Shown here in pieces: positions 1 to 57,956 of a stretch of DNA of 64,000 nucleotides. Source of the stretch: an uncultured Chloroflexia bacterium (GTDB lineage Bacteria; Chloroflexota; Limnocylindria; Limnocylindrales; CSP1-4); assembly GCA_963731995.1 (NCBI GenBank), contig CAVSXV010000004.1:64973-128972 (forward strand), given 5' to 3'. The first letter of the stretch is position 1, and each line of letters opens with the position of its first letter. The translations under genes and the position numbers were made by a program. Under the pieces are notes generated by a model, which was given only the letters and a program-made list of their open reading frames with translations, was not told the DNA's origin and ran no database searches.

Positions 1-458
1 GCTGGGCGGCCCTGACCGATGTCCCGCTGCCGGGTGCCGAGCTGGGCCTCTCGGCCGAGGCGCTCGCACGCATGCTGGCCGTGCCCGGCTGTGTCGCCTT
101 CAGTGCGCTCGCCGAGGACGGCCCGGTCGCGATGGCGGTGGTCTACGTCAGCGGTGACGACGCCCACCTGCACGCAGTGACCAGCTCAGCGCTGGGCGAG
201 CAGCTGGGCGCTCGCTATGCCTTGGTACAGACGATGGTCGAGGACATGGCCGGCCGTGGGCTGCGCTTCCTCGACCTCGGCAGCGCCGATGCCGACCCGG
301 CCTTCATGGGCGGTTGGACCGAGATCTCCCGGCCCTCGTTCGGCTGCGGTCGGGTCATCGACCGTGTCGCCTACGAGCAGCTGACGGCGGCCGTGGCGAC
401 GACCGGCAGCGGGGCCTTCCCGGCCTACCGCGACCGAGCGGCTAGACTCGCGCCATGA
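1..458 (+). CDS. C-terminal part of an acetyltransferase-like (GNAT/FemAB-type) protein; 5' end lies outside the window
   Basis: The frame of ORF 72..458 stays open back to nt 3 (WAALTDVPLPGAELGLSAEALARMLAVPG...), so the gene starts upstream of the window. Its TGA stop (456-458) overlaps the rmlB ATG (ATGA). The family call rests only on weak resemblance. Confidence 0.3.
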   Translation, partial: WAALTDVPLPGAELGLSAEALARMLAVPGCVAFSALAEDGPVAMAVVYVSGDDAHLHAVTSSALGEQLGARYALVQTMVEDMAGRGLRFLDLGSADADPAFMGGWTEISRPSFGCGRVIDRVAYEQLTAAVATTGSGAFPAYRDRAARLAP

Positions 459-1501
459 GGATCCTTGTCACCGGCGGAGCCGGGTTCATCGGCTCGACCT
501 TCGTCCGTCGGCGCCTCGCCGACACCGCCGACAGCATCATCGTCGTGGACAAGCTGACCTACGCCGGCAATCCCGCCAACCTGGCCGGCCTGGCCGAGGA
601 CCGGGCCACGCGCGATCGGTACCGTTTCGTGCAGGCGGACATCGCTGATGAGCCCCGCATGTCGGAGCTGGCCGCCGAGGCCGACGCCATCGTCAACTTC
701 GCCGCCGAATCGCACGTCGATCGCTCCATCCTCGAGCCGACCGCCTTCCTGCACACCGGTGTCATGGGCGTGTACGCCCTGCTCGAGGCGGCACTGCAGC
801 AGTCGCGGGCACGGGACGGCGCCTTCCGCCTGCTGCAGGTCTCGACCGACGAGGTGTATGGCCCGGTGCCCGCAGGGCTCTCGGTGGAGTCCGACCCCAT
901 CCGTCCGACCTCGCCCTACAGTGCGGCCAAGGCCGCCGGCGAACACCTCGTGGCGGCCTACCACGAGACGCATGGCCTCGACACGGTCATCACCCGGGGG
1001 GCCAACACCTACGGCCCCAACCAGTACCCCGAGAAGCTCATCCCGCTGTTCGTGACCAACGCCCTCGACGACGAGCCGCTGCCGATGTACGGCGACGGCA
1101 TGCAGCGGCGGGACTGGCTCTACGTGGCCGACCACGCCGAAGGCATCAGCGTCGCGCTCGACCGTGGGCAGGCCGGTGCCGCCTACAACGTCTCCGGCGA
1201 CGGCGTGGAGCGGCCCAATCGTGCGGTCACCGAGGCCATCCTCGAACACCTGGGCAAGCCCTGGTCGCTGGTGCGCACCGTGCCCGACCGACCCGGTCAC
1301 GATCGCCGCTATGCGCTCGATGGTTCACGGCTGCGAGCCCTCGGGTGGGCGCCGGCGACGACCTTCGAGGCGGGCATCGCGCAGACCATCGACTGGTACG
1401 CGGCCAACCGCGAGTGGTGGGAGCCCATCAAGTCCGGGGACTGGGATGACTACTACCGTGAGCAATACGCCTGGCGCCTGGAGCAGTCGAAGGACGCCTG
1501 A
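455..1501 (+). CDS. rmlB: dTDP-glucose 4,6-dehydratase
   Basis: Intact 348-aa ORF. It has the Rossmann motif 'MRILVTGGAGFIGS', 'DKLTYAGN', the catalytic 'YSAAKAA' (YxxxK) and the RmlB-typical C-terminus 'DWYAANREWWEPIKSG'. Confidence 0.95.
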   Translation: MRILVTGGAGFIGSTFVRRRLADTADSIIVVDKLTYAGNPANLAGLAEDRATRDRYRFVQADIADEPRMSELAAEADAIVNFAAESHVDRSILEPTAFLHTGVMGVYALLEAALQQSRARDGAFRLLQVSTDEVYGPVPAGLSVESDPIRPTSPYSAAKAAGEHLVAAYHETHGLDTVITRGANTYGPNQYPEKLIPLFVTNALDDEPLPMYGDGMQRRDWLYVADHAEGISVALDRGQAGAAYNVSGDGVERPNRAVTEAILEHLGKPWSLVRTVPDRPGHDRRYALDGSRLRALGWAPATTFEAGIAQTIDWYAANREWWEPIKSGDWDDYYREQYAWRLEQSKDA

Positions 1502-3440: not shown

Positions 3441-5152
<1,712 letters not shown>

Positions 5153-15253: not shown

Positions 15254-16430
15254 ATGAGCGATCCCTTCGGTTCCGGCCAGTCCTTCCGCGATGTCGTGGT
15301 CGTGCCCTATTCCGACCTGCTCGACCGCTGGCGTGACGGCGAGATCCACCGGGGTGGGCCCATCTGGCCCGACTGGGAGGCGCAGGTCGGCGCACGCCAC
15401 GGGCGTGGCGGACGGCCGATCGATATCCGCCCGGCGGACCCGAGGGGCCGATCGCGGCGCCGGGCCGATGGCCTGGGGCGGGGCCATCGTGGACGCCTTC
15501 GGGCACCAGGTGGCCGACTTCTCCGCGCGACTCCTCGCGACCGTGCGGCGCGACCGGACCTGCCCATCGCCTTCGCCTCGCGGCCGGACCTCGGCTACGC
15601 GGACCTCGCGGCCGCACCCGGCTATTTCCGAGCCATCCTCGAGTGGCTCGGTGTGACGCCCGAGCGTGTCCGCATCATCACGGCACCGACCCGCGTCAGG
15701 GAGCTGTTCGTGGCGCCACAGGCGGAGCAGCTCAGCGGCCCTGGCCCCGAGGCCGGCTACCTCGACGCCCTCGATGCGCTCGCGGATGAACGCTCGGGCC
15801 CGCGGGTCGCGACCCGGCTTGCTCTACGTCTCGCGCGCCGCGATGGAGGCGCGCTTCGCCGGCGAGCCGTACCTCGAGGCGGTGCTGGGCGCCGCCGGGG
15901 TCCGTGTCCTGCGACCCGAGACGCTGCCGCTCGCCGCGCAGCTGCGAGCACTACCGTGCGGCGGCCGACATCGTCTTCGCGGAGGGATCGGCGCTGCACG
16001 CCCTCCAGCTGCTGGGGCACGTCGGCGCCGAGTCGGCGTGCTCGAACGGCGACCGGGCACCCGCCTTGCCGAAGCCAACCTCCGGCCCCGCGTACGCGAC
16101 CTCGCCTACGAGGAGGTCGCCACCGGGCTCGTCCACGGCATCCTGCCGACCGGTCGACCGGCGTTGCCGAAGGGCCTGTCGGTGGCCGACCCGGGCGGCT
16201 GTTCGAGGCCTTCGCCCGCCGCGGGGTGGACCTGGGTCCGAGTGGGACGCACGGCCTGGGAGGGGCCCGCGACGCCGACGTGCTGCGCTGGGTGCGAGAC
16301 GCAGGCCGAGGAGCCCGGGCACCTCGGCGTCGGTTCGGCCGAGCTCCATCCTCGAGGGGCTGGCCGACGCTGGCCTGGGCCACCTCGTCGACGAGGCGTC
16401 CGCCCGACTCGAGCCGTTGCGAGCGCACTC
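15254..16430 (+). pseudogene. GT61/DUF563-like glycosyltransferase (capsule-biosynthesis type), multiply frame-disrupted; 3' boundary uncertain
   Basis: Pieces in three frames: 'MAWGGAIVDAFGHQVADFSARLL', 'GYFRAILEWLGVTPERVRIITAPTRVRELFV', 'GLLYVSRAAMEARFAGEPYLEAVLGAAGVRVLRPETLPLAAQL' and 'AAADIVFAEGSALHALQLLG'. The 510-aa ORF 15254..16786 is a mosaic of real and out-of-frame sequence. Confidence 0.5.
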
Positions 16431-17136: not shown

Positions 17137-18168
17137 CTACCTGAGGCGGCCCTTGAACCTCGCCGAGTTGGCCACGATGCGATACGCCCGCACGGCAGAA
17201 CCGTTGCGCGGCATCGCCAGCCGCCAATCGGGGTGCGCAACGGCGCGGTGGGGTTCGTCGGTGTCGAGGTACAGGATGGCCTTGACCCTGGGGAACCGCT
17301 TGAACACGTTGTTGTAGCCGCGCTTGATCCACGCCGCCTTGTTGCCGCCCTTGTGGTTGGAGCCCACCTCGGCGAGGAAGATCGGCTTCCTGGTGAACTT
17401 CCGCGCCAGGGACACGACCCGGCTGACCTTCGTGGGCAGAGCCGTCCAATCTCGCTTCCCTTCGGAACCCGAGATCCCATAGTTCATGATCGTCGCGCCG
17501 ACGTAGTCCACGACCTTGTCGCCCGGATACGACTTGCTCTTGGGCAGGAAGTTGCTCCACAGGAAGAGCGTGTACTTGCGTGCTCCCTCCTGGCGAAAGA
17601 TCTTGTCGATGTGTCGCCAGGCCTTCTTGTAGTTCCTGACCGTGTTGCCATTGTTACCGATGGACCATGGAAACCAGTGGCCGGTCGCCTCATGCGCGAA
17701 GCGCACCACGACCTTGCGCCCGCCGTTCGCCCTGGCCGCGCTCTTGAGGTCGCGGGCCCACTGTCGGATGTAGGCGTCATGTTTCCCGACCGCGATGCGC
17801 TTGTAGCTCGTGTACTTGGGGCTTGCGGGGTGTGCCGGATCGAGAGGCTGCCACCAGATGACCGGGGTGATGCGCTTCTTGAGCAGGGCCTTGGCGACGT
17901 CCAGTGGAAATGCGCAATTCCCCTGATCGCGATGGAGCCGGCACGGCTGCCTCGGCTGCCCCAGTTGCTCCACAGGCCCCACAGTCCGGGCCGCTGTCCG
18001 CCCATCATGTCGATGTGCTCCTGCAGGACGGCGAGGTCGGAACCTCGCGGGTCGGAGATGCCGATCGTGATCCGGTCGCGTGCCGCGACCGGGACGGCCG
18101 CGACCAGCAGCGCCATGACGATGAGGATGGGGATGAGGAGAGATCTGGACGGACGATGGGCCCTCGAT
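17137..18168 (-). pseudogene. Secreted GH26-like glycoside hydrolase (paralog 1), one frame disruption near 17965; start approximate
   Basis: ORF 17137..17982 contains 'VVVRFAHEATGHWFPWS' and 'IFLAEVGSN', the two catalytic-Glu blocks of GH26. The N-terminus 'LLIPILIVMALLVAAVPVAARDRITIGISDP...LWGLWSNWGS' is in the frame of ORF 17484..18857. It is collinear with the intact paralog at 19873..20895. Confidence 0.6.
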
Positions 18169-19150: not shown

Positions 19151-19160
19151 CGGTGGCGCC

Positions 19161-19745: not shown

Positions 19746-19770
19746 GTCATCTCCATCTCGGTCGTCAACT

Positions 19771-19802
19771 CACAAGGGTGGACCTTCAGGTCCACCTTTG
19801 TG
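19771..19802 (-). terminator. Strong hairpin between the GH26 paralog 2 stop and the rmlC start (candidate intrinsic terminator or RNA-processing stem)
   Basis: cacaagggtggacc-ttca-ggtccacctttgtg forms a 14-bp stem. It has one G-T pair on the plus strand, which is an A-C mismatch in minus-strand RNA. There is no U tract. It lies 70 nt after the upstream minus-strand stop and 26 nt before the rmlC ATG. Confidence 0.4.
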
Positions 19803-19872
19803 GCCCCCTGGAATCTGAACGCGGGGCCCTGCGAGGACCCCACGAAACGGTAGCGGATGACGGTTGGCCTCG

Positions 19873-20895
19873 CTACTTGGGGATGTGCCCCTTGAAGGCC
19901 CTTCGCTTGGCGATGTTGGCGTAGGCCTGGAGCGCCGAGCCGTTGGACGGCAGGTCCAATCGCCAACTCGGGTGCTTCTGTGCGATGACCGCTTCGGTGT
20001 CGAGGTACAGGATGGCCTGGACTCGAGGCTGGCTCCGGTAGGTCTTCATGTAGCCCTTCCTGATCCATGCAGCCTTGTTGCCGCCCTGGTAGTTTGACGC
20101 GACTTCCGAGAGCATGATCGGCCGCTTGCTGAACTGCTTGGCCAGCTTGACCGACCGGTTGACGAGGCCGGGCATCTCACGCCACCTGTTGCGCTTGCCT
20201 GCCTGCTTGCCGAAGTTGAGGATGGTCACGCCCACGTAGTCCACGTAGCGATCACCCGGGTAGGCGCCCTTGCGCGGAAGGTAGTTGCTCCACACGAACT
20301 TGACATGCCTGATCGCGCCGACGGCCTTGAACTGCTTGTGGATGTGGCGCCAAGCCTTCTTGAAGCTGGCTGCGGAGTTGTTCCAGTTCTGGAGCGACCA
20401 CGGGAACCACCGGCCGGTGGCCTCGTGCGCGAAGCGGACCACGATCGGGCGGTTGTTATGGTCCTGAGAGACCGCCTTCAGGTTCCTGGCCCACTGTCGG
20501 ATGTACTTGTCGTGCTTCCCGGACGCGATGGTCGGATAGCTCGACCAGATCTTGTGGCTGTTGGGAGTGTCGTCCGTCGGCTGCCACCAGACCACGGGCG
20601 TGATACCCATGTCCATGAGCCGGTCAGCCTCAGCTCTGGGGAAGAAGCAGTTGCCCCGGCCTTCGATGCAGTTGTTCACGCCCGTGCCATCGCGGCCGCC
20701 CCAGTTGCTCCAGAGCGACCACATCGCAGGCTTGTAGCCCGGGAGGTACTGCCCGACCTCTGCCATGTGCTGCTCGACGGTCCGCCTGGGATCTGAGGCA
20801 CCGATGGCGATCTTGCTTCGGGCTGCGGTCGGCACGGCGGTGAAGAGGACCGCGAGCGCGACGAGCAGCGAGATGGTGGTGAATGAGCGGCGCAA
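19873..20895 (-). CDS. Secreted GH26-like glycoside hydrolase (paralog 2)
   Basis: Intact 340-aa ORF. It has a TTG start with RBS aggaggga upstream and the signal peptide 'MRRSFTTISLLVALAVLFTAVPTAARS'. The catalytic blocks are 'IVVRFAHEATGRWFPWS' and 'IMLSEVASN'. Confidence 0.7.
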   Translation of the reverse strand: MRRSFTTISLLVALAVLFTAVPTAARSKIAIGASDPRRTVEQHMAEVGQYLPGYKPAMWSLWSNWGGRDGTGVNNCIEGRGNCFFPRAEADRLMDMGITPVVWWQPTDDTPNSHKIWSSYPTIASGKHDKYIRQWARNLKAVSQDHNNRPIVVRFAHEATGRWFPWSLQNWNNSAASFKKAWRHIHKQFKAVGAIRHVKFVWSNYLPRKGAYPGDRYVDYVGVTILNFGKQAGKRNRWREMPGLVNRSVKLAKQFSKRPIMLSEVASNYQGGNKAAWIRKGYMKTYRSQPRVQAILYLDTEAVIAQKHPSWRLDLPSNGSALQAYANIAKRRAFKGHIPK

Positions 20896-21324
20896 GGCTT
20901 GTGCTCCCTCCTGTTGCGATGGTCACGGCGCCACCGTCGCGAGACGCGAAGGCCGCTGGCTACAGCGGGATGCTACTACGACAACTTGTCGTATGTCCAT
21001 ACCCGATGTCTCCGCCGGATGCGGCGTGGACGATGGTCCAACTTCGCTCGACGACGACCGCCGCAACGTACCATGCTCTCGCTCTTTAGGCCCACTTGAA
21101 CTTCGTGCGCCGGGTTTGGCCCCAGCCGACCCGGTTGCACGAGCGCTCGCCACGCAGCGACACCGATGGTAGGCTTCGCCTTCATTGCCCGTGCGGGCGG
21201 GATCGCAGATGCCGTGCGTACTGACGAAGCAGGATGGAGACGAAGGGGTTCGCGTGCGCGACACCGAGCGGGCCTGCGCGGCTCACGCCTTCGGGCTGAG
21301 TCCTGTCGCAGGCAGGATGGCCGC

Positions 21325-22722
21325 ATGATCCGCCGCCACGGCGGGATGTTGCGGGCGCTGCTCATGCTCACCGACGGCGCGCTGGCAGTTGCCATGAGCC
21401 TGGCCCTCTACCAGGGCCTGGCGCACCCCGACACCTCGCTGGGCCCCTTCCTCGACGCCTTCTGGGCGCGGGCCCTGGTCTATGGCCTCGCCTGGGTCGG
21501 GCTCCTCTACATCAACGGCGCATATCGACTGCGTGCCCACTGGACCCTCGCATCCGAAGCTCGCTCCGTGGTCCGGGCCACGTTCTGGCTATCGCTGCTC
21601 GGTATCAGCGTGCTGTGGCTCTCGGCTGCCGATCGCGCTGCCAGCGGCTGGGTCCTGCTTCTCTTCCCGTTGCAGGGTGTGCTGGCCATCATCATCCGGG
21701 CGGCGGTTCGGTCGACGTTCATGTACATGCGCCGCCAGGGCTACAACGTTCGCAACCTGCTCATCGTCGGGACCGGCACCGAGGCCACGGACTTCGGGCA
21801 GCTGGTGCGCGAACATAGCATTCTCGGCGTGCAGGTCGTGGGTTACCTCGGCGACGCGACGCCGGCCGGTGTGCCGCAGAGCCAGTACTGGGGCCCGTTC
21901 TCCGACCTGCCCCGGGTCCTCAATGACCGAGTGGTGGACGAGGTGGCGATCTGTGTCCGTGACGATCAATGGCCGGACGTCGAGCCACTCGCCCAGTTGG
22001 CGCACGAGCAGGGGAAGCTGATCCGTGTGCCGCTTCAGGTACCGAGACTGCTCTCGTCGGATCGCACTCTCGAGGAGCTCGACGGGCAGGCGGTACTGTC
22101 ATACGCCTACGGCCCCGACGAGCTCGTGGGTCCCGCGCTCAAGCGTGCCTTCGACATCGCCGCTTCCGCTACGGCCCTGGTGCTGCTCTCGCCGCTCATC
22201 CTGGGCATCGCGGCCGTGCTTCGGATCCGGCAGGGACCCGGGGTGATCTTCCGTCAGCAGCGGATCGGCCTGCATGGTCGGCCGTTCACCATCCTCAAGT
22301 ATCGTACGATGGTCGCGGACGCCGAGGAGCGCTACTCGGAGGTCGCTGGCCGGAGCCATACGAGCGGCGCCGCCTTCAAGCTGGTGGGTGACCCACGTGT
22401 CACCCCGGTAGGGAAGTGGCTCCGCCGCTATAGTCTCGACGAGTTGCCCCAGTTCGTGAACGTCCTGAAGGGCGAGATGAGTATCGTAGGCCCCAGACCA
22501 GCACCGCCTCGCGAGGTTGAGGAGTACGACATATGGCACCGACGCCGCCTCTCGATGAAGCCGGGCATCACCGGCCTCTGGCAGATCACCTCCAGACTGG
22601 ACGAGGACTTCGATCACCGGGCAGAGCTCGATCTGGCCTACATCGACCGATGGTCGATCTGGCTCGACGCGTCGATCGTGCTCAGGACCATCCCGGCCGT
22701 CCTGCGGAAGCCGGGACATTGA
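21325..22722 (+). CDS. Polyprenyl-phosphate glycosyl-1-phosphate transferase (WbaP/EpsB-type priming sugar transferase)
   Basis: N-terminal TM bundle, then a Rossmann-like segment 'NLLIVGTGTEATDFGQLV'. The C-terminal bacterial sugar-transferase domain is 'FDIAASATALVLLSPLILGIA...RIGLHGRPFTILKYRTM...SLDELPQFVNVLKGEMSIVGPRP...KPGITGLWQI'. The start is chosen at ATG 21325 (RBS agga 8 nt upstream). Confidence 0.85.
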   Translation: MIRRHGGMLRALLMLTDGALAVAMSLALYQGLAHPDTSLGPFLDAFWARALVYGLAWVGLLYINGAYRLRAHWTLASEARSVVRATFWLSLLGISVLWLSAADRAASGWVLLLFPLQGVLAIIIRAAVRSTFMYMRRQGYNVRNLLIVGTGTEATDFGQLVREHSILGVQVVGYLGDATPAGVPQSQYWGPFSDLPRVLNDRVVDEVAICVRDDQWPDVEPLAQLAHEQGKLIRVPLQVPRLLSSDRTLEELDGQAVLSYAYGPDELVGPALKRAFDIAASATALVLLSPLILGIAAVLRIRQGPGVIFRQQRIGLHGRPFTILKYRTMVADAEERYSEVAGRSHTSGAAFKLVGDPRVTPVGKWLRRYSLDELPQFVNVLKGEMSIVGPRPAPPREVEEYDIWHRRRLSMKPGITGLWQITSRLDEDFDHRAELDLAYIDRWSIWLDASIVLRTIPAVLRKPGH

Positions 22723-27112: not shown

Positions 27113-27132
27113 GCCTCGGGCCTGGTGGAGGA

Positions 27133-27852
27133 CTAGTCTTCGTCGGCAGCCATGGTGGCCGCTTCGAGCAGTGACTCGATCGTGCCCGCATCGTGCCACC
27201 GACCCTCGTAGTGGCGGGTGAAGAGCCCACCGTCGTCGATGTAGTGGTTGAGCACGTCGGTGATCTCGAACTCTCCTCGGCCCGAAGGGCTGAGGTGCTT
27301 GATCACGCCGAAGGCGTCGGGTCGGAGGAAGTAGACCCCGATCGGGATCGAGTCGCTCTTGGGTGCCTCGGGCTTCTCCTCGAACCCGACGACCTGGCCC
27401 TGCTCATCGAACTCGGCGACGCCGAAGCGCGTCGGGTCATCCACGTGGTACAGCAAGGTGCCCGCACCCCATGGTCCGGCCTCGAACTCGGAGGCGACGT
27501 CAGCGAGCGCGTCACCTCGCAGGATGTTGTCGCCGAGGACCACGCAGAAGGCCTCGTCGCCGACGAACTCACGGACCAGGCCGATGGCATGGGCGATGCC
27601 CAGCGAGTCGCGCTGGTAGCGGTAGCTCAGGTCCAGCCCGAAGTCCTGCCCATCGGAGAGCAGCTCCACGATGTCGCCGATGCTGCGCCCTCCGAGGATG
27701 ACCATGACCTCGTCGATGCCCATCCCGGCCAGCGTCTGCAGCGGGAAGTAGATCATCGGCCGGTCGTGGACCGGCAGCAGGTGCTTGTTGGTGACCAGCG
27801 TCAGCGGATGCAGGCGTGAGCCCGTTCCGCCAGCCAGGACGACCCCTTTCAT
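27133..27852 (-). CDS. rmlA: Glucose-1-phosphate thymidylyltransferase (short-form sugar nucleotidyltransferase)
   Basis: Intact 239-aa ORF with 'MKGVVLAGGTGSRLHPLTLVTNKHLLPV', 'GIAHAIGL', 'VVLGDNIL' and 'EKPEAPKSDSIPIGVYF'. Confidence 0.85.
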   Translation of the reverse strand: MKGVVLAGGTGSRLHPLTLVTNKHLLPVHDRPMIYFPLQTLAGMGIDEVMVILGGRSIGDIVELLSDGQDFGLDLSYRYQRDSLGIAHAIGLVREFVGDEAFCVVLGDNILRGDALADVASEFEAGPWGAGTLLYHVDDPTRFGVAEFDEQGQVVGFEEKPEAPKSDSIPIGVYFLRPDAFGVIKHLSPSGRGEFEITDVLNHYIDDGGLFTRHYEGRWHDAGTIESLLEAATMAADED

Positions 27853-31900: not shown

Positions 31901-32113
31901 CGCCGAGTCCTGTGGACGCCGCAGAGCGTGCTCTTCCACGAAGAGGGACGATCACGACGGGGGGTCGACTACCTCGGCGACGAAGGGCGCTTGTGGGAGC
32001 GTTGGGGCGACCTGCTGGCGTCGGGCGATCGCTACTACAACCCCAACCTCTCCGAGGACCGGGTCGACTGCGACCTTGACTGGTCGCGCTTGTTCCGAAG
32101 CGGCGGGCGCTAG
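28917..32113 (+). pseudogene. Very large (~1065 aa) multidomain glycosyltransferase with three GT2-type modules; two frame disruptions (~30640, ~31290)
   Basis: Module 1: 'VTISLVTWNGLRWLPGCLDSVAAQT...LVLDNGSDDGS...NLGYARGHN...LLLNQDVEL' (ORF 28917..30788). Middle module: 'VHLVVFDREDGDLQATLRSIARQT...VYADHDSVDSEG...YIGGAFLVRDG' (frame of ORF 30412). Module 3: 'VSIIVPTTGRRELVADLL...VVVLDNS...LLFLNDDMH...VTGACLLVRREAFEEVGGFDERF...NDVDLCLRL' (ORF 30785..32113). Confidence 0.7.
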
Positions 32114-33070
32114 CCGCTCCAGCGTCGCCCGACTCCGCGTCTCGCCTTTCGCTTCACCTCTTCGGGCTCCGGCTCTGGCACGCCCTTCACGATCTCGCTC
32201 TCGTAGAAGTCCACCGCATCGTCGGCCGTGCCCGAATACTGGACCCTGCCCCCGTCGAGGACGATGGCGTTGTCGCACAGCTCGCGCACGATATGGAGGC
32301 CATGGCCCACGTAGACCACGGTGCGGCCGTCCTTGAGCCGGTCCTTCATGAACTTGGTGGCCTTGGCCTGGAAGGCTGCGTCGCCGACCGAGAGGACCTC
32401 GTCGATGAGCATGATCTCAGCTGGCAGGAACGCCGCCACGCTGAACGCAAGGCGAGCGTACATGCCGCTCGAGTAGTTGCGGACCGGTTGGTCGAGGTAG
32501 CGACCGACCTCGGCGAAGTCCACGATGTCATCGAAGCGTTCCTGGACCTCCGCCGCGCTCATGCCCAGGATGGCGCCGCTGAGGGCGACGTTGTCACGAC
32601 CGGTCAGCATGGGGTGGAAGCCAGCTCCGACCTGGAGCAGGGGTGCTACGCGGCCGTGGATCAGCGCGTTGCCCTCGGTCGGCGCCGTCACTCGGGCCAG
32701 CAGCTTCAGCAGCGTGGTCTTGCCGTGGTTAATATTTTTTGGAAGTTTGTATTGATTTGGAGCAGAGGCGCGACCCGCCGTAGATCTAGGCGCTGCCCTC
32801 TGTCGGCGCCGTCACCCGAGCCAGCAGCTTGAGCAGCGTGGTCTTGCCGAGCCGTTGCGTCCGACGATGCCGAAGATCTGACCGCGCTCGACCTTCAGGT
32901 CCACGCCGCGAACAGCCCACACGATCCGTTCTTCCTTGGTCTGCGTTCCTGGGCTTGCGCGAAAGCACGCCGCCCATCTTGTCCATGAGGGCGCCATGCG
33001 CTGGTCGCCGTGCCAGGCGGAATGACTTGCCCAGGCCCTCCGCCTCGACCGCGACGTTGTCTGCGCTCAC
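32110..33070 (-). pseudogene. wzt: Polysaccharide ABC exporter ATP-binding protein (Wzt/TagH-type), split by a degraded tandem duplication and frame disruptions
   Basis: GTG 33070 gives 'VSADNVAVEAEGLGKSFRL...VWAVRGVDLKVERGQIFGIVGRNG(S)GKTTLLKLLARVTAPTEGSA*'. After the insert, ORF 32110..32691 reads '...TAPTEGNALIHGRVAPLLQVGAGFHPMLTGRDN...YSSGMYARLAFSVA...EIMLIDEVLSVGD...VYVGHG', which contains the Q-loop, ABC signature, Walker B and H-loop. Confidence 0.85.
32671..32848. repeat. 54-bp near-identical direct repeats (32671-32724 and 32795-32848) flanking a 70-bp segment with an extremely AT-rich core, inside wzt
   Basis: Read directly. The two 54-mers differ at 4 positions. Stretch 32729-32760 (ttaatattttttggaagtttgtattgatttgg) has 7 G and 0 C in 32 nt. 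See the findings for the alignment. Confidence 0.9.
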
Positions 33071-33071
33071 G

Positions 33072-33920
33072 TCACTCGCCCATCCAGTCGGCGAAGAGCG
33101 GCTCCCGTCGACGGAAGAACACGAAGCCCACCACGAGCAGGATGATCGCGACTGACCCCCCGAGGAACCATGCCTCGAGCGGCGGGGCTGGCGTCCGCGT
33201 GAAGGCCCACCTGACCGAATCGATGACAGACCGCGAGCGGATTGAGGTAGTAGAACGTGCGGACGTCCGCCGGGATCAACATCGTGGGGTAGATGATCGG
33301 CGACACCCAGAACCAGGCCTGGGTGATCAGCGGCACCAGGATGTCCATGTCGCGGTACTGCACCGAGGTCGCAGCGAAGAGCATCGAGACACCGACCGAG
33401 GTGGCGTACATGATGAGCACGGCGAACGGGAGCGAGAGCAGCCCGATACCTGGGGCGATCCCGTAGACGACCAGCAGCACCAGCAACGCGACGACCATGA
33501 AGCACGAGGTCGACAAGGCTGGCGAGGTTGATCGATAGCGGGAAGTACAACCGGGGCAGGTAGATCCGCTGCACGAGCGCGCCGTTGGCCAGCACGCTGC
33601 TGCCTCCTTCACCGATGTTCTTGCTGAAGATGCGCCAGACGACCCATGCCGGGAAGAGGAAGACCGCGAAGGGCAGGTCTTGTCGCGAGCCGCGATCGAG
33701 GATGAGCCCCATGAAGACGCTGACGATGAGGACAAGAAAGAGCGGCTGCAGGACGACCCAGGCGATGCCCAGGACCGTCGACGAGTAGCGCACCTTGATG
33801 ACACGTTGGGACAGCACCCAGAGGATGCGGCGGGTCTTCCAGAGCTCGCCGAAGCCCAGGATGGGCCACTTCAGCGGGCTCGATGTGCGTAGGACTGAAC
33901 TCGGTGGTCGAGTCGATCAT
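33072..33920 (-). pseudogene. wzm: Polysaccharide ABC exporter permease (Wzm, ABC-2 type), frame-disrupted
   Basis: 'MIDSTTEF' is followed, after frame shifts, by 'KWPILGFGELWKTRRILWVLSQRVIKVRYSSTVLGIAWVVLQPLFLVLIVSVFMGLIL'. Later pieces are 'FAATSVQYRDMDILVPLITQAWFWVSPIIYP...TFYYLNPLA' and the end 'FADWMGE*'. The stop at 33072-33074 overlaps the wzt GTG. Confidence 0.8.
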
Positions 33921-34045: not shown

Positions 34046-34868
34046 ATGGGTCGGCGCCGGTATGCTTCGGGTATGAAGTGGTGGACACGCTGGGGACAGG
34101 CCGAACGACCGAGCCACGACTGGACGCTCCTGTTCATGCACATCCCCAAGACCGCCGGGTCAACCATGCGCGACGCACTCGCGCAAGGTCTATCGGCCGG
34201 CGAGCGGCTCTTCCTCTACGACGCCGCCGACCTCAAGGGGCCGTCCAGCCGGACCGGTATCACGGACCTTCCACGAAGCCAGCGGGCACTGCCTGCGGTT
34301 CGTGATGGGTCACTTCTACTACGGCCTGCACAGCGACGTCCCGCGACCCACTCGCTACGCGACGATGGTCCGGGATCCCGGTCGAATCGCGTGGTGTCGC
34401 ACTACTATCACTATCGCGCCATGGCGAGCTGCCGTCGGGGAGTCGAGCCTGCCCTGGAGCAGCGCCGGATCATCGAGGGTGGGCTGTCCCTGGAGAAATG
34501 GGTCTTCGACTTGCAGGCGACACAGACGGACAATCAGATGGTCCGCCAGTAGTCTCGGGCGAAACGTCGTATCGTTCGGGAGCTGCCCCGGATGACTTGC
34601 TGACCGAGGCGCTCTTGCACGTAGACGAACACTTCGTGCAGGTACTCGTCCATGGAGCGTATGGAGGAGTCCCTGGAGGCGCCTGAGCTCGAGCTTGGGT
34701 GTTGCTCTCCGGACTCCTCCAAGCGCAATGCTAATGCCTCGAGGGCTGCGCTGAGGACGTCGACCCTCCGGGTCCTCGCGAGGATTCGCGACCTCAATCG
34801 TCTGGACGCAGCGTTCTACACAGCGCATGGCCGAGCGCCTTCAAGACGCGGCATGGACATCCAATTGA
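34046..34868 (+). pseudogene. Sulfotransferase (paralog 2), frame-disrupted
   Basis: 'WTLLFMHIPKTAGSTMRDAL' is the PAPS-binding PKTxGS/T loop. The rest reads 'GHFYYGLHSDVPRPTRYATMVRDPGRI', 'VVSHYYHY', 'GGLSLEKWVFDLQATQTDNQMVRQ' and 'RIRDLNRLDAAFY'. Pieces lie in three frames. Confidence 0.65.
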
Positions 34869-34880
34869 GCGCCGAGCCCG

Positions 34881-35728
34881 ATGTCCGACAGAACGAGTGC
34901 CGATGTCGGCGACGACACTCTCGTGTTCATGCACTGGCCAAGACCGGCGGGACCGCGCTGCGCTCCTCCCTGAGGCAGGCGTTTCCGCCTGAGGTCAGCG
35001 CCTTCGTCTATGGCTCAGGGGACTTGGAGGGTTCTCTGACTCCCGGGCAATTCGCAGGCCCTCGAGCGCGAGTCACTCCAGCGCCTCAGGCTGGTCATGG
35101 GGCACTTCCCGTATGGTCTTCACCAAGAAGATCGATCGGCCCTGCAAGTATGCGACGTTGGTTCGTGATCCAGTGGACCGAGTGGTGTCGTTGTACTACC
35201 ACTTCCGCAACCTTCCGGGAGTCCGCTTCGGCAGCAGAGGCCACCGTGAACGTTGGCGACTGCGCTGGAGGAGGATCTCCCTGGAGGACTGGGTCTTTGG
35301 CGAGAAGCGAATCGCGACAGACAATCTCATGATCCGACACGTGGCAGGGGGCGGACCCATCCCGTTCGGCGCGTGCACGGAAGACCTCTTCGATCGAGCG
35401 ATGGAGAACGTGGAGCGAGACTTCGCTGCTCTCCTGGTGACCGAGGACATGGTTGGCAGCACCTTGGTGTTGCAGCCGGATCGTCGGCCGAGACCTCCCA
35501 ACGGTCAGCCGGGTCAACACGAATCCCAAGCGACCGGCCCTGGAGGAGATTCACCCTGCCACGGTGGCGCGCATTCGGGAACTGAACCACTTGGACGTTC
35601 AATTCCACGAGGCCGCGCTCGACTGGCTGAAGCGGGCTTCCTCATCCCGGACGGCATACCTTGGCAAATCTTCGAGGCCTGAGCGTGAGCAGGCTGCATG
35701 GAGACTCTCCTGGGGCAAGGGGCGCTGA
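34881..35728 (+). pseudogene. Sulfotransferase (paralog 3), frame-disrupted; 3' end uncertain
   Basis: ATG 34881 gives 'MSDRTSADVGDDTLVF'. It is followed by 'HALAKTGGTALRSSLRQAFP', 'KYATLVRDPVDRVVSLYYHF' (RDPxxRxxS), 'ISLEDWVFGEKRIATDNLMIRHV', 'PFGACTEDLFDRAMENVERDFAALLV' and 'VNTNPKRP...IRELNHLDVQFHEAAL'. Confidence 0.65.
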
Positions 35729-35758: not shown

Positions 35759-37770
35759 ATGAACAAAGAGTCTGCGCGTGAACTCGTGCGCCTCGCGCCG
35801 CTGTCCTTTCCAAGGTCGTCCGACCCTCTGGTTTCTATCGTCATCCCCGTGTTCAACAAGTGGCGACTGACCTACGAATGCCTGCGAACCCTCCGAGCCG
35901 CGCGTACCGAGGTGGCATACGAGGTCATCATCGTGGATGATGCGTCTTCCGATGCGACCCAGGCTCTCCTGGCTCAGGTCGACGGGATCACGGTCGCGAC
36001 TCAGACGGAGAATGGCGGCTTCCTCCGCGCGTGCGGAGCTGGCGCGCGTCGGGCTAGTGGCGCATACCTCGGCTTCCTGAACAACGACTGTGAGCCCACT
36101 GATGGCTGGCTTGACGAGGCCATCAGTGTGTTCCTTAGCTTCCCCGATGTGGGCCTCGTGGGCTCCAAGCTCGTGTACGCAGATGGACGGCTTCAAGAGG
36201 CAGGCGGCATCGTATGGTCCACCGGTGATCCGTTCAACTACGGATCGCGGGATGGACCCCGACGAACCGGAATTCTTATACACACGGCAGGCTGACTATG
36301 TAAGTGGTGCCGCGATGATCATCGACCGCGAGGTCTGGCGAACGGTGGGTGGCTTCAGCAGAGAATTCGCGCCCGCCTACTTCGAAGACACGGACTTGGC
36401 CTTCAAGGTGCGTTTAGCTGGTTCGAGGGTCGTATACGCCCCGCACTCGGTCGTGGTCCACCACGAAGGCATGACTGGTGGCACGGACACGAGCACCGGC
36501 ATGAAGCGGTACCAGGAGCTCAACGAACCACTCTTCAAGGCCAAGTGGGCGGACGCCTTCGCGCGCCAGCCGCCGTTCGGCCTTTGGCAACGCCTGGCTG
36601 CCGATCATTGGACTGGGAATGGACGAGCCCTGATGGTGGCGAGTTCGATTCCGAGCGCCGCTGACTACTCACACGGTCATCAAGCTATCCAGGAAGCACG
36701 GATCCTCCAGTCCCTGGGCTACTCAGTCACATGGGCTGCCGTGTCGTCAGCTGCGTCCAGCGCACGGATAGGCGATTCTCAGCGGATAGGGTGGAGGTGC
36801 TCGCCCAGCCGCACCTCAAGGGCCTGCTGCGTCTCCTCGCTGAGCGTGGGCCCGAGCTCGATGTTGTCCTATTCGTGGACTCCTCAGTTCCCGACGGGAT
36901 AGCGGAACACGTGCGTCGGCTGGCTACGCGAGCGAAGCTACTAGGCTGGTTTGCGCTCGGGGACATCGAAATGAACACTCGCGCCGCGCTGGGCCCTTCG
37001 AGTGGCGAGCGGAGTAGTGACCTCGATGACGCATCTCATGTCCAGGCTGCCGGAGTCGACCTCCTTCTCTCGCGCGCTGACCAAGAGCGCGAGCTGTCAG
37101 TCGCAGTACCCCACTCCCCACCCGTCGCCCTGGTGCCGTAGTCGTGGATCTGCCATCACATCGACCCACGCCGCACGGCCGTCGCGGTATGGCCTTCATC
37201 GGAGAAGGCGCTCAACCCGCTGACCGAGCGGCCGTGGAGTTCTTGTCAGAGCGAGCGGGGCCGCTATTGCGCGAACGTGGCCAGTCGCTCGAGCTGACGG
37301 TCTTTGGCGCGGGTTGGGAGCAAATCGCCGACTCGCTGTCAGACGACCCAGGGCTGACTTTCGTGAGCGACGGGAGCCGCTTGCAGGATATCTGTGACGA
37401 GTCCTGCCTCATGGTCGTCCTTGCTGGCGCCGGCCATGGTTGGTCGCCTGCCATCGCGGTCGCTGCCTCACGGGGCCTGCCCTGGGTGTTGCTGGCACCT
37501 CCGGGTGGAGCCGAGGGTCGGACCTTGGGTGACAACGACCTCGTAGCTCAGACACCGGATAATCTTGTCGCCCATCTCGCGAGGTTGAGTTCCGACAACG
37601 ACCTGTGGCAGCAGGCGTCGGAGGCTTCACAACGGCTTGCCGAACATCACTACGGGTTCGAGCAGGGCAGAGCCCGATGGCGCCACACACTCGAGATGGC
37701 CGGTGTGACCGGCATAGCGGCCAAGGACCCGATGGTGTCAAGCGCGGGCGTCCCGAGGCGGGCATCGTAG
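35759..37770 (+). pseudogene. Bifunctional-looking GT2 (N-terminal) plus GT4/GT1-like (C-terminal) glycosyltransferase, with frame disruptions and an in-frame TAG at 37139-37141
   Basis: GT2 part: 'LVSIVIPVFNKWRLTYECLRTL...VIIVDDASSD...ENGGFLRACGAGA...LGFLNNDCEP...YVSGAAMIIDREVWRTVGGFSREFAPAYFEDTDLAFKVRL'. C-terminal half: 'RALMVASSIPSAADYSHGHQAIQEARILQSLGYSVTW' and 'RRGMAFIGEGAQPADRAAVEFL...LELTVFGAGW'. Confidence 0.6.
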
Positions 37771-37800: not shown

Positions 37801-39859
37801 TTGGCGATGCTACCCTCTGGTCCATGTTCGCCGATCCCATCGGTCCTCTGTGCACCGGTGCGCAGAGTGGGAGTCATTCGCAGGCTCTGGCCAATGGGCG
37901 ACGATGCTGTACTTGGCAGGCGACCGCTGATGCGTGATCGTCCGCCGACCGCGAGTGCCGACCATGCGGTACCGATCGACGCCGAGCAGCTCCGCGACGG
38001 CATGCTTCGGCTGCGGGCAGAACTTGACGATATCCAGCGCGAGTCCAAGCTGGAGATTCGGGAGTTGGAGGCTGCACTTGCGTCGCGACAGGCCGCATCC
38101 CGATACTCAGTGTCAGCGGCCTTGCGACGTCAGGTACGACACGCTTGGGCCAGTGTTGGACGGGCGGTCCTTCGAGTAGTTCCGCAACCCCTCGTGGCGA
38201 TCCTATGGCACAACCCGCTGTTCGATCGGTCTTGGTACCTCACTCGGTACCCTGATGTGGACCAGCGTGGCACTGGTGCAGAGCGCCACTACCGACGACA
38301 CGGATCAGCTGAGGGCCGCAATCCGAATGCCTACTTCGACACTCGCTGGTATCTATCCCGCTATCGAGATGTGGCCGCAGGCAAATTGAACCCCCTCGAC
38401 CATTACCACTACTACGGATCTGCCGAGGGTCGCGATCCGGGCCCGCGCTTCGACACGGACTTGGTATGTGGAGCGATATCCGGATGTCCTTGCGTCCGGC
38501 CTCGATCCATCCTTCACTTCCTCCGCATTGGAGAAGCGGAAGGTCGAGCTCCGCACGGTAGGTCAGCCCGCCACGCTTCAGGGGAGTCCGCGGATCCGAA
38601 CCCATCTCCGATGCATGGCGTCGTACAGCGCACTCTCGTTCGCGACGTCGGTTGCCGCTAGCCAGCGAGGTGTTCGGCGAGATTCCAGGATCACCCGGTT
38701 GCGCTCGTCGTCGATGGCAAGTACCCGGCCCCCGACCGGGATGCCGGCTCGGTGCTCACCGCACAGTACATTCGATTGCTTCAATCCCTCGACTACCACG
38801 TTGTCTTCGTCAGTGCTGCCCCTGACCGGGGACATGGAGGGTACAAGGATGCCCTCCGCTCGACTGGGGTGACTACCCTGGACGCAGGAACTGGCCGCGA
38901 ACGGATCTCATCGAATTCTTGCGTCGCGAAGGCCACCAAATCGACGTGGCCCTTCTTTCTCGTGTGTCGGCGGGCGGCCTGCTCATCGATGACGTCACCT
39001 TCTTCTGCAGGCATGCGAAGACCGTCTTCCTCACTCAGGATCTGATTTCCTGCGAGAGCGGCGACTGGCCGAGTTGGCCGGCGATCGACCGGGCATGTAC
39101 GCTGCTGCCAGCCTTCAGGAGCTCGAGGTCCATGTGGCTCGCCGCCTGGCCAGCGCCACGATCGTTGTCTCCAGTGTCGAACGAGACCTTCTCGCATCGC
39201 TGGCGCCCGGGGCTCGCGTGTACTGGTGTCCGCTGATCCAGGATGCAGTTGGGAGGTCAATTGACTTCGAGTCGAGGTCGGGCGTCGCATTCGTCGGCGG
39301 CTTCCAGCACCCGCCCAACCTGGATGCAGTCGAGTACTTCCTCGACGACGTCTGGCCCGCGATACGCCAGAGATTGCCGCATGCGAACTTCTACGCAATC
39401 GGTCCCGACCTGCCTGCCAACTCAGCCTGCGACCAGACGAGGGCTTCGTGACCGTAGGCCACGTGGAAGACCTGACCCCCTGGCTTGAGCAGGTGCGCGT
39501 CACCGTCGCACCGATGCGGTACGGCGCCGGCATGAAGGGAAAGGTGCTCTCAAGCATGGCCCTCGGTGTGCCGTGTGTCGCATCGAAGGTGGCTGCTGAG
39601 GGGATGGATCCTGCCTTGACGGGCATTGTCGTGGCTGAGAGTGCAGCGGCATTTCGTGGACGAGGTGGTTCGTGTTCACGAAGACCAGGAGGCGTGGCGG
39701 CGACTGGGGGACACAGGGCTTCGCTGGATCGACACACACACCTCCACCCGCAAAGCTCAAGAGAGGCTCCGGCTGATCCTCCGCGATGTCGGGGCGCCGC
39801 TCCCCGGTGCTACGGTGGACACTCCGACTCGGGGGTCTAGGTTGGGCAGCGCTGAATGA
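37801..39859 (+). pseudogene. Coiled-coil / triple 'FDxxWYxxxYPDV' repeat / GT4-like glycosyltransferase fusion, frame-disrupted; start uncertain
   Basis: The coiled coil is 'LRLRAELDDIQRESKLEIRELEAALASRQ'. The repeats lie at 38221-38553: 'LFDRSWYLTRYPDVDQRG..ERHYRRHGSAEGRNPNAYFDTRWYLSRYRDVAAGKLNPLDHYHYYGSAEGRDPGPRFDTD(W)YVERYPDVLASGLDP'. GT4-like part: 'TAQYIRLLQSLDYHVVFVSA', 'RSGVAFVGGFQHPPNLDAVEYFLDDVWPAI' and 'VRVTVAPMRYGAGMKGKVLSSMALGVPCVAS'. Confidence 0.55.
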
Positions 39860-52410: not shown

Positions 52411-52594
52411 GGGCGCGGGCTCGCTTGCGCCGGCGAGGCACATCGCGCCGGCGCTCGGGACTGTTGGGCGCCTCGGCAGACATGGCTCAGAGGATAATCG
52501 CTCGATCCGTCGCCGGGCTACGATTGCCCGATGCGACTTCACGACGGGTCCGCTCGGCCATGAGGGCCGTGCACTGGTTCGGCAGGACGATCCG

Positions 52595-53431: not shown

Positions 53432-53537
53432 GGCGCGGGTTGGGTTGGCTGCCCTCAAGGTGGCAGGCGGCAGGGGAGACCTCAACGCCCGCAGACGCCG
53501 ACCGCGATGCCGGTGGCGCTGACCGCGCTCGCCGCGA

Positions 53538-55227: not shown

Positions 55228-55319
55228 GACTGGCGACCTCCCGTGACGGCGATCACCTGAGTCTCGACCCAAGACGTGCTCCTGTCATCGGTCAGCGGCT
55301 CAGTGGCCGCCTTATTCGG

Positions 55320-56499: not shown

Positions 56500-56501
56500 G
56501 G

Positions 56502-57660: not shown

Positions 57661-57677
57661 GTGATAAGTTGTTGCAC

Positions 57678-57950: not shown

Positions 57951-57956
57951 CCGGCG

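Follow-up and report, generated by a model that had tools for sequence, protein, structure and literature searches.

A candidate ABC-transporter-dependent envelope-glycan locus with embedded sulfotransferase homologues in an uncultured soil Chloroflexota bacterium

To our knowledge, hardly any polysaccharide sulfotransferase has been characterised outside animals. In the papers we found, bacterial sulfated polysaccharides are treated as essentially cyanobacterial (PMC8205485, PMC13390465). In the papers we searched, genetic proof of a bacterial pathway for sulfated EPS exists only for synechan of Synechocystis PCC 6803; its xss cluster encodes two sulfotransferases (STs) of distinct subfamilies, XssA and XssE, among many glycosyltransferases (GTs), and ABC-type clusters bearing STs have been predicted in cyanobacteria (PMC8205485). 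The EPS cluster wps-1 of the soil monoderm Actinoplanes missouriensis contains two STs of different families (WpsB and WpsH) together with the GH26 protein WpsE, and its sulfated product is still unverified (PMC13390465). Among the other bacterial STs, NodH belongs to PF13469 and Stf0 has been placed in PF00685 (PMC11625862). Our literature search found no report of a sulfated glycan from Chloroflexota.

Here we describe a 64-kb stretch of DNA from an uncultured soil member of this phylum, referred to below as the window. A reading of the letters of the window (the original prediction) had located four ST homologues, a stand-alone APS kinase gene (cysC) and a sulfatase gene, and all six features were confirmed (Table 1). 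Its statement that the locus cannot be matched to a described system proved too strong, since the family to which three of the STs belong comprises about 34,000 clusters at 50% identity and polysaccharide clusters with STs, described or predicted, are already on record for cyanobacteria, where some are of the ABC type, and for Actinoplanes (PMC8205485, PMC13390465). We read the window as a large ABC-transporter-dependent envelope-glycan locus with embedded soluble PAPS-dependent carbohydrate O-sulfotransferases, whose sulfated polymer would be exported and whose frameshifts are artefactual, and we assign this reading a probability of roughly 0.6.

Table 1. Positions in the window (position 1 is its first letter) of the features discussed in the text.
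Feature	Position	Strand	Evidence and remarks
rmlB, dTDP-glucose 4,6-dehydratase	446..1498	+	TIGR01181 407.8 bits (cutoff 365); PF16363
cysC, stand-alone APS kinase	3444..3981	+	One frameshift near 3600
GT61-like glycosyltransferase	15300..16350 (approximate)	+	Directly upstream of C; frameshifted; stitched PF04577 24.5 bits, E 3e-5, below gathering
ST gene C	~16430-17115	+	Divergent C-type paralogue
GH26-like glycoside hydrolase, second copy	17170..18000	-	PF02156 42 bits
rmlD	~18300-19250 (approximate)	-	Frameshifted; PF04321 97.7 bits on stitched pieces
rmlC	~19300-19870 (approximate)	-	Frameshifted; PF00908 144.4 bits on stitched pieces
GH26 glycoside hydrolase	19876..20922	-	PF02156 53.5 bits
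Priming polyprenyl-phosphate hexose-1-phosphate transferase	21166..22722	+	TIGR03025 361 bits (cutoff 296); PF02397
RmlA-like sugar-1-phosphate nucleotidyltransferase	27125..27852	-	PF00483 181 bits; TIGR01207 222 bits, below cutoff of 360
Three GT2 glycosyltransferases	27970-28909, 28956-29915, 30603-32096	+	Pfam GT2 families; 2-4 frame changes each (against L001/L002 orthologues)
Wzt, ABC-transporter ATPase	32110..33075 (upstream boundary approximate)	-	PF00005 at 32113-32811
Wzm, ABC-2 permease	33077..33913	-	Divergent from A; 63% identity to intact 282-aa PF01061 protein of L003; 2 frame changes
ST gene A	34046-34868	+	A-type, HS6ST/HS2ST-like; TGA stop at 34866-34868
ST gene B	34881-35728	+	B-type; ATG start at 34881
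GT2 glycosyltransferase	35759-36900	+	PF00535 85.9 bits
GT1 piece	37144-37770	+	PF13692 24 bits, below gathering
WYLxxYPDV-repeat segment	37801-38661	+	Regex scan
GT1 piece	39448-39840	+	PF13692 47 bits
511-aa multi-pass membrane protein	42751-44286		No family match
Glyco_tranf_2_4	50495-51553	-	PF13704 53.4 bits; divergent from D
Polysaccharide pyruvyl transferase	~51550-52480	-	Frameshifted; PF04230 34.4 bits; divergent from D
ST gene D	52595-53431	+	Open ORF; separate Sulfotransfer_2 lineage
Cys-type (formylglycine) sulfatase, 787 aa	59837..62200	-	PF00884 220.7 bits; CSPTRSCILTGR motif

In translation, all four ST genes contain the 5'-PSB loop (PKxGxT, with Lys or Arg) and the 3'-PB motif P-x-x-R-x-x-S. 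The motifs read HIPKTAGST, GHF, VRDP..NRVVS and LNRLD in A, H(W/L)P-KTGGTAL and VRDPVDRVVS in B, HMPRSGGG and LRHPVSRILS in C, and SPKAGTT and VRDPYDRAVS in D. The Arg that C carries in place of Lys in the PSB loop is one of two residues accepted at this position in STs (PMC11625862). The PB motif of A is interrupted by a +2 frame change at ~34382; in B the PSB loop lies on a frameshift junction. Conserved columns of the alignment were H18, K21, T22 and G24 in the PSB loop, R95, D96, P97, R100 and S103 in the PB motif, and H75. Three of the genes had been called clear paralogues sharing the blocks PFGACTED and LN.LD. The paralogy of A, B and C stands, and all three have the C-terminal LNxLD block, which aligned with LNMLD of HS6ST, but PFGACTED is confined to B and C, its counterpart in A being a degenerate YRSGAAPDD.

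The profile of the A/B/C-type family matched HS6ST3 with an E-value of 2e-19 and HS2ST1 with 1e-10. In the HMM search that had been proposed for the corrected proteins, B (PF00685, 30 bits; PF03567, 23.9 bits) and D (PF03567, 27.7 bits) scored above the gathering score of 22, whereas stitched A and C (PF06990, 21 and 15 bits, respectively) remained below the gathering score of 27; intact A-type and B-type orthologues carry PF03567/PF06990 matches. No NCBIfam model matched any of the four proteins. The metagenomic protein P0001 (258 aa) shares 63% identity with B (E 6e-107), and the protein search with stitched B found no match above this identity, intact or otherwise. Frameshift-aware alignments gave 47-48% identity between A and P0035, with no in-frame stops, and 40% between C and P0016. 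The AF2 model of D has a pLDDT of 90.7 and a pTM of 0.88; the best 50 Foldseek matches listed from the PDB were all ST-fold proteins solved with PAP(S), although the matches were weak (best E 7.5e-3, TM 0.42), and a sequence search of D against the PDB found nothing significant. With a dN/dS of 0.155 against its L004 orthologue, D is under purifying selection. In none of the ST proteins did any 19-residue window exceed a KD value of 1.33. Motifs, Pfam matches and profile comparison, together with the fold model of D and the profile match of A, B and C to the solved HS6ST and HS2ST, place all four proteins within the PAPS-sulfotransferase superfamily, as the original prediction held. Judged by their sequences, A, B and C are paralogues of a bacterial family related to the vertebrate heparan-sulfate 6-O- and 2-O-sulfotransferases.

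H75 is conserved in at least 90% of the sequences of a 20-sequence alignment (A1), and the same His, numbered H74, is invariant in an alignment of 13 intact homologues (A4). This His of the GH motif, found in A and B, aligns with His142 of HS2ST, which we take to be the catalytic base. C has GDF in place of GHF, with Asp at the position of the His, and RHP in place of RDP, and lacks an insert of ~19 aa in the alignment. The same peculiarities recur in the N-terminal domain of the fusion protein P0103 (Lys to Arg in the PSB loop, GDF, and loss of the RDP Asp, the motif there being ANP), and another fusion protein, P0102, has Arg at the position of the catalytic His. C belongs to a conserved divergent subtype without the catalytic His. 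It may be a non-catalytic partner or may use a different base.

A locus scan with an 8-sequence alignment returned loci of relatives, the window's own genome not being among the matches; the nearest are Nanopore-only MAGs from Microflora Danica that carry the label "uncultured Chloroflexia". An actinobacterial origin, which GC content and sortase had first suggested, was rejected on the ground that every close syntenic relative has a Chloroflexia label. A tandem ST pair adjoins Wzm in three loci (L001, L002 and L003), and ST pairs are also present in L005, L008 and L009. Two further loci, L007 and L010, contain ST triples, and there a D-type ST adjoins Wzt. All three ST types surround Wzm-Wzt on an unbinned JGI contig (3300056388), where 5.4 kb hold, in this order, a GT61 gene, two ST genes in reverse orientation, and Wzm, Wzt and a D-type ST gene in forward orientation. 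The ST pairs and triples of the relatives are divergent from Wzm-Wzt, and GT61 genes flank the STs there too. Elsewhere, A-B and C-B fusions occur as single chains (P0100, P0102 and P0103), and the A-B fusions suggest that the A and B enzymes work as a pair. The predicted sulfated envelope glycan gains weight from the retention of the ST pair or triple beside Wzm-Wzt and from the contig with all three ST types; four active enzymes, however, would be an over-count, since C, as a conserved divergent subtype, lacks both the catalytic His and the RDP Asp.

The glycan region holding the STs extends over ~40 kb. An ABC-2 permease and an ABC ATPase are found together in this GT-rich locus with a polyprenyl-phosphate priming transferase, and neither Wzx nor Wzy was recognised in the window's Pfam and NCBIfam maps. 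Three points count against the main reading: in the window D lies 17 kb from Wzm/Wzt, C has no catalytic His, and the Pfam scores of stitched A and C are below gathering. The N-terminal Walker A part of Wzt is read in the 32786-33817 ORF, and the protein is short, without a C-terminal carbohydrate-binding extension (its orthologue on the JGI contig has 290 aa). We had considered that a carbohydrate-binding domain of Wzt might recognise a terminal sulfate as the signal for chain termination or export, and rejected this because of the missing extension. Sortase and DUF4012 genes are also present near the STs. The locus had been described as a Wzm/Wzt rhamnan type. Wzm and Wzt are present and the dTDP-L-rhamnose pathway is encoded from RmlA to RmlD, with RmlC and RmlD recognised on frameshift-stitched pieces and RmlA being only RmlA-like, below the NCBIfam cutoffs, and 90% identical to its L001 orthologue.

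In the proposed mechanism, the locus would supply dTDP-rhamnose synthesis, a priming transferase, ~10 glycosyltransferases, Wzm/Wzt, GH26 enzymes and a pyruvyltransferase, and CysC would convert APS to PAPS. PAPS is cytoplasmic, and since the STs have no membrane anchor, sulfation would be expected on the cytoplasmic face. There, the STs would modify distinct hydroxyls of a lipid-linked, fully assembled, rhamnose-containing glycan, after which Wzm/Wzt would export the polyanionic polymer, sulfated and possibly pyruvylated, to the envelope. The sequence data directly show the family membership, the gene order, the conserved module and the error pattern. We infer that a glycan is sulfated; its acceptor sugar and the positions sulfated are likewise predicted from the genes. 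A more specific proposal, which we put forward tentatively and consider somewhat less probable than its negation, is that an uncultured soil Chloroflexota clade uses an ABC-transporter pathway to make an envelope glycan which contains rhamnose, is multiply sulfated and may be pyruvylated, with a conserved A/B pair, further sulfation added by D and the C-type protein as a possible pseudo-enzyme partner. If true, Chloroflexota would gain its first sulfated envelope polymer and its first assigned polysaccharide sulfotransferases.

Whether cysC and the sulfatase gene take part in this system is evenly balanced against the explanation that both are housekeeping genes, serving assimilation and sulfate-ester scavenging, which lie in the same 64 kb by chance, so that there is no "toolkit" beyond the STs. 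The original prediction of a stand-alone APS kinase was borne out: after one frame correction cysC scored 205.9 bits with TIGR00455 (cutoff 138.7), and none of cysD, cysN, sat and cysH is adjacent to it. In the uncorrected sequence, a frame change separates the P-loop GLSGSGKST from the remainder of the protein, and the ORF as it stands covers only positions 52-151 of PF01583. The gene is 30 kb from A/B among unrelated neighbours (PPIase, MazG and RNase PH), but less than 2 kb from rmlB, and a stand-alone APS kinase fits a dedicated PAPS supply only if assimilation runs via APS and not PAPS. Of the nearby Cys-type arylsulfatase that had been proposed, the Cys-type sulfatase is real, with the signature C/S-x-P-x-R-x(4)-T-G present as CSPTRSCILTGR from residue 94, but a link to the glycan locus is unsupported. 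The gene is located 24 kb from A/B; its neighbours are MIP, a bestrophin-like gene and a toxin-antitoxin pair. The protein, having no evident signal peptide, would not meet an exported glycan. Against a purely accidental neighbourhood, D and the intact sulfatase gene are kept in synteny in one relative, L004, where the dN/dS of the latter is 0.086. Among the annotated parts of the window no ATP sulfurylase, PAP phosphatase or FGE was identified.

A second alternative, which we consider unlikely, is that the STs are active on a target other than the exported polysaccharide, perhaps a lipid or glycolipid, a small metabolite or a glycan linked to protein, and that their adjacency to Wzm/Wzt reflects co-regulation or another exported substrate. 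The characterised bacterial STs, such as NodH, Stf0 and KpsS, indeed act mostly on glycolipids or lipo-oligosaccharides (PMC11625862, PMC8205485), and the neighbouring sortase and DUF4012 genes would agree with such a target. Because conservation in STs does not extend to the acceptor-binding regions (PMC11625862), the substrate is unreadable from sequence. However, polysaccharide O-sulfotransferases are the nearest homologues of A, B and C with a solved structure, the module has GTs and Wzm/Wzt around it in every case, across several MAGs and one unbinned contig, and no genes for lipid or polyketide synthesis lie next to the STs, all of which argues against this alternative.

The frame changes in the window bear on whether the genes are alive. 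By eye at least 5 were seen in A, and alignments gave 7-9; B has 4, C has ~7 and cysC has a single one. They fall at 34293, 34382, 34549, 34652, 34677, 34707 and 34821 in A and at 34941, 35055, 35125 and 35477 in B. Motifs that appear in different frames give the minimum counts, while counts of the frameshift-aware aligner are upper bounds, since paired shifts are probably over-called in divergent stretches such as DUF4012. The ORF of D is open, but single-base insertions at 53338, 53357 and 53383 put residues 248-262 out of frame and garble them. Among 17 indel events relative to L004, which is 90% identical, 15 are extra bases on the window side. A GHMP-kinase gene has 3 net frame changes from 4 inserted bases and yet a dN/dS of 0.153, similar to its intact neighbours (0.09-0.16). 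Comparing the MAG L002 with L003, an independent Logan contig, over 3.3 kb shows 7 one-base indels, 6 of them extra bases in the MAG, and aligning the Wzm of L002 to the intact Wzm of L003 revealed three frameshifts in the MAG copy. Which genes are broken, and where, varies from MAG to MAG. The Microflora Danica MAGs were assembled from Nanopore reads only, using Flye and one round of Medaka (PMC12313526). Based on the one-sided indels, the low dN/dS of the frameshifted GHMP kinase and the different break sites in sister MAGs, consensus errors of the insertion type in a Nanopore-only metagenome assembly are the most likely cause of the broken frames of A, B, C and cysC and of the garbling in D.

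The density of the frameshifts is uneven, from zero in the 2.4-kb sulfatase gene to ~1 per 100 bp in A, which is not what uniform error would give. Broken genes cluster in the glycan region (A, B, C, DUF4012, the GT2 genes, Wzm, rmlC and rmlD), the sulfatase, URO-D and sugar-ABC genes being clean, and the product of the broken B ORF, P0052, is present in the deposited proteome (NCBI/ENA), encoded on a 727-kb contig. Nevertheless, true pseudogenisation of the ST genes and of much of the glycan region between 15 and 50 kb, in a decaying locus whose sulfated glycan this strain has lost, is quite improbable, given that corrected A and B have neither in-frame stops nor large deletions despite 4-9 frame changes, that the conserved ST motifs are intact, that the indels are almost all single-base insertions on one side, that the one case which could be checked in an independent assembly contradicts it, and that three +1 insertions within 45 nt restoring the frame of D are hard to explain biologically. 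The apparent death of the genes, which the original prediction had named as refuting if read data confirmed it, probably reflects the assembly and not biology.

If confirmed, the exported sulfated glycan would add another phylum, and the ABC-transporter pathway, to the known range of sulfated envelope polymers. The compact ST-ST/Wzm-Wzt/ST module is conserved in soil Chloroflexota, and its intact orthologues (P0016 and its partner, P0035/P0029, and P0031/P0034/P0081) are concrete candidates for enzymology and for the engineering of sulfated glycans. The window also illustrates that, in Nanopore-only MAGs, dense insertion errors in strain-variable glycan loci can mimic pseudogenisation, and that part of an ORF can be out of frame even where the ORF, like that of D, looks intact.

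In cluster content, the window resembles xss, both being polysaccharide clusters with STs of distinct subfamilies. They belong to different phyla, and xss uses Wzx/Wzy polymerisation, whereas the window has Wzm/Wzt; the sulfation of synechan has been shown chemically and that of the window's glycan is predicted from its genes. By its description, wps-1 is similar in combining GH26, of which the window has two, with STs of differing families, but is Wzx/Wzy-dependent, and its STs carry other InterPro annotations (IPR051135 and IPR037359). NodH, KpsS, LpsS and Stf0 are, like the window's STs, soluble bacterial PAPS-dependent enzymes of envelope glycoconjugates, a role that is predicted for the window. 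Their acceptors are a lipo-oligosaccharide, trehalose and LPS/K-antigen, and their genes do not form tandem pairs next to Wzm/Wzt as A and B do. The vertebrate HS6ST3 (PDB 5t03) and HS2ST1 (PDB 3f5f/4ndz) share with the A/B/C family the 5'-PSB motif H-x-P-K-T-G-G-T, the 3'-PB motif R-D-P-x-x-R-x-x-S and the LNxLD helix, at ~20-25% identity. In contrast to them, the bacterial proteins are soluble, ~256 aa long and without a type-II membrane anchor, their acceptor is certainly not heparan sulfate, and they occur as tandem paralogues or fusions.

The original prediction placed four sulfotransferase (ST) genes (A-D), cysC and a sulfatase in the window, where GC content is high (0.61-0.71), and start and stop codons, translated motifs and HMM matches located all of them at the positions listed below. 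The motifs quoted for these genes were found as well, except that 'PFGACTED' is present in B and C and degenerate in A. The prediction was thus confirmed as an observation, and its interpretation was partly supported.

Sulfation-related genes in the window
Feature	Position	Strand	Remark
ST gene A	34046-34868	+	start and stop codons as originally predicted
ST gene B	34881-35728	+	adjoins A; start and stop codons as originally predicted
ST gene C	~16430-17115		third paralogue
ST-like ORF D	52595-53431		fourth ST
cysC	3444-3981		two frames joined score 206 bits on TIGR00455 (cutoff 139)
Sulfatase, 787 aa	59837-62200	-	PF00884 match; CSPTRSCILTGR present

B, stitched across its frameshifts and used as a query, retrieved some 60 metagenomic proteins, each around 256 aa long (best match 63% identical, E 6e-107), most of which carry PF03567 or PF06990. 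The family profile matched the solved structures of heparan-sulfate 6-O-sulfotransferase (E 2e-19) and 2-O-sulfotransferase (E 1e-10), across the 5'-phosphosulfate-binding (PSB) loop, RDPxxRxxS, a conserved His aligned to HS2ST His142 and the C-terminal LNxLD helix. In the Pfam search B and D passed the gathering scores, and stitched A and C scored below them. D falls in a small PF03567 lineage (~30 homologues) made up entirely of metagenomic sequences; its AF2 model (pLDDT 90.7) was compared with the PDB, and the 50 best matches listed were all sulfotransferase-fold proteins solved with PAP(S), at a distant level of similarity (best E 7.5e-3, TM 0.42). A hydrophobicity scan revealed a hydrophobic anchor in none of the proteins.

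Pfam and NCBIfam searches of the window were used to map the glycan region, which extends from ~15 to 53.5 kb. It begins with a GT61-like gene and C. Next, on the minus strand, come rmlD and rmlC, in this order between a GH26-like gene and a second GH26 gene. A priming phosphotransferase (TIGR03025), a sortase and DUF4012, an RmlA-like gene and three GT2 genes follow. Wzt and Wzm lie next on the minus strand, with A and B divergent from them and more GT2 and GT1 genes downstream; at the end, Glyco_tranf_2_4 and polysaccharide pyruvyltransferase genes are divergent from D. rmlB and cysC stand apart, at 0.4-4 kb. Because these maps contain Wzm/Wzt and the rhamnose pathway, the predicted 'Wzm/Wzt rhamnan-type locus' holds in those two respects; a rhamnan as the product is putative. 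The two GH26 (mannanase-type) genes lie inside the biosynthetic locus, at 17170-18000 (-) and 19876-20922 (-). The variable part of the locus encodes a 511-aa multi-pass membrane protein (42751-44286, -) with no Pfam or NCBIfam match, which could be a polymerase, a ligase or a GT-C-like enzyme. A repeat motif that matches no Pfam family, FDxxWYLxxYPDV...HYxxxGxxEGRxP, occurs in glycosyltransferase-adjacent ORFs at 38221, 38335 and 48192 (+), and also at the N-terminus of the metagenomic fusion P0039, upstream of its ST domain.

Relatives were scanned with one genome per species, and the closest homologues were 43-59% identical. Most of these genomes are MAGs titled 'uncultured Chloroflexia bacterium isolate MFD...'; L009 is an Illumina MAG ('uncultured Anaerolineaceae'). 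L001 (MFD03804.bin.2.50) shows synteny with the window, its DNA being 68-84% identical, and L004 is ~90% identical over 52.5-63 kb. An A-type followed by a B-type ST gene, divergent from Wzm-Wzt, was found in L001, L002 and L008, and the short Logan contig L003 has the ST pair beside Wzm; the ST genes of both L002 and L003 overlap by 4 bp. L005 and L009 have tandem pairs too, around which Wzm/Wzt were not detected, and L007 and L010 carry ST triples plus a D-type ST beside Wzt. On a 5.4-kb JGI contig, GT61, two STs, Wzm, Wzt and a D-type ST are packed together. This conserved module, including the JGI packing, is the strongest evidence that all ST types would serve the exported polymer. For the sulfatase, which is cytoplasmic, the connection to the locus amounts to synteny with D in one relative. 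By synteny with L004, a NikA-like/PIN toxin-antitoxin pair (57600-58300), its PIN gene with one frameshift in the window, lies between URO-D and the sulfatase. L004 lacks a 1.8-kb window segment (53521-55325), which has 46-bp imperfect direct repeats on either side (53476-53521 and 55354-55398, 85% identical) and holds a 368-aa ORF (53541-54644, -) without a Pfam or NCBIfam match; the segment could represent an insertion or a gene specific to this lineage.

Reading the genes through required at least five frame changes in A, at least four in B, about seven in C and one in cysC. Genuine pseudogenisation of the ST genes would account for such damage, but we consider it unlikely; the apparent gene death is probably technical, since the insertions are one-sided, break sites differ among MAGs, an independent assembly disagrees with its MAG counterpart, dN/dS is low and A and B are free of in-frame stops once corrected. 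In 15 of the 17 indel events between the window and L004, it is the window that has the extra bases. Orthologue-guided alignment showed that the broken genes and break sites change from MAG to MAG: DUF4012, unshifted in L001, has 13 shifts in the window and 20 in L002; the ST genes, unshifted in L002, have one shift in L001 and many in L010. Over 3.3 kb, seven one-base indels separate MAG L002 from the independently assembled contig L003; at six of them the MAG has the additional base, and the L002 Wzm copy shows three frameshifts against the intact Wzm of L003. The GHMP-kinase gene of the window has three net frame changes (four inserted bases), yet its dN/dS is 0.153, compared with 0.09-0.16 for its intact neighbours. 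In D, three +1 insertions within 45 nt, after which the frame is restored, replace the family-consensus 'EVGQLYAEDCEAYGY' by 'QSRATVRRRTARRTG'. The relatives' catalogue is Nanopore-only, assembled with Flye and polished by one Medaka round, and its authors report errors associated with Nanopore data in MAGs of lower coverage (PMC12313526).

At 15000-50300 and 53300-58100, frameshifts of the single-base insertion type are widespread but unevenly distributed: they are densely packed in the glycan region, and the sulfatase and URO-D genes have none. Such unevenness would fit a strain-variable glycan island with low or mixed coverage. Since high GC leaves wrong frames open, several 'intact' ORFs, among them an SDR (48587-49354) and D, are partly out of frame. 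Where L002 (7643-8480) aligns to L003 (1-831), the extra bases of the MAG fall at non-homopolymer GC-rich sites (CTG[C]GTC, GCC[G]CTC, GCGG[C]TGC), all within the Wzt/Wzm part and none in the adjoining ST genes, and polishing of mixed strains is one possible cause.

In C a ~19-residue insert is missing, the PSB Lys is replaced by Arg, the catalytic His by Asp (GDF) and the Asp of the RDP motif by His. P0103, a protein of two domains, likewise has the Lys-to-Arg change and GDF in its N-terminal domain, where the RDP Asp is also lost (ANP), and the N-terminal domain of P0102 is more degenerate still. Judged from these sequences, C is a conserved odd subtype, not simply a decayed copy. These substitutions and degenerate domains cast doubt on catalysis by C-type domains, which may partner an active domain. 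Many family members (P0100-P0110, P0101, P0135, P0152) have two ST domains per chain, and as many as 4-5 stretches match in proteins 860-1694 aa long; in some N-terminal domains the PSB Lys and catalytic His are gone. P0100 is an A-type/B-type fusion, an arrangement that favours the idea of joint action by the tandem A and B genes.

In the mechanism we propose, CysC would supply PAPS, soluble STs would sulfate the undecaprenyl-linked glycan at the cytoplasmic face, and Wzm/Wzt would then export the polyanion. As the ABC-transporter pathway builds the whole chain before export, a PAPS-dependent step would have to be cytoplasmic. That A-type and B-type STs persist as separate lineages across MAGs suggests that they sulfate different positions or residues. 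Sulfate as a terminal export signal is unsupported, Wzt being short and without a binding-domain extension.

Few non-animal polysaccharide STs have been characterised, as a review points out (PMC11625862), and in a mat study the two Chloroflexi MAGs yielded no PF13469 STs (PMC9723792). With 33,980 50%-identity clusters at E<=1e-3 and 3,816 at E<=1e-30, the A/B/C-type family is very large, and for this reason the window STs are further members of a known family in a new phylum, worth recording and not surprising. Mechanistically, their closest relatives are animal HS6ST and HS2ST. In organisation, the locus is closest to the cyanobacterial synechan xss cluster, with two STs, Wzx/Wzy and proven sulfation, whose authors already predicted ABC-type ST-bearing clusters in cyanobacteria (PMC8205485), and to Actinoplanes wps-1, with two STs, GH26 and an unverified sulfated product (PMC13390465). 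The GH26 enzyme of wps-1 is WpsE, and the window locus has two GH26 genes.
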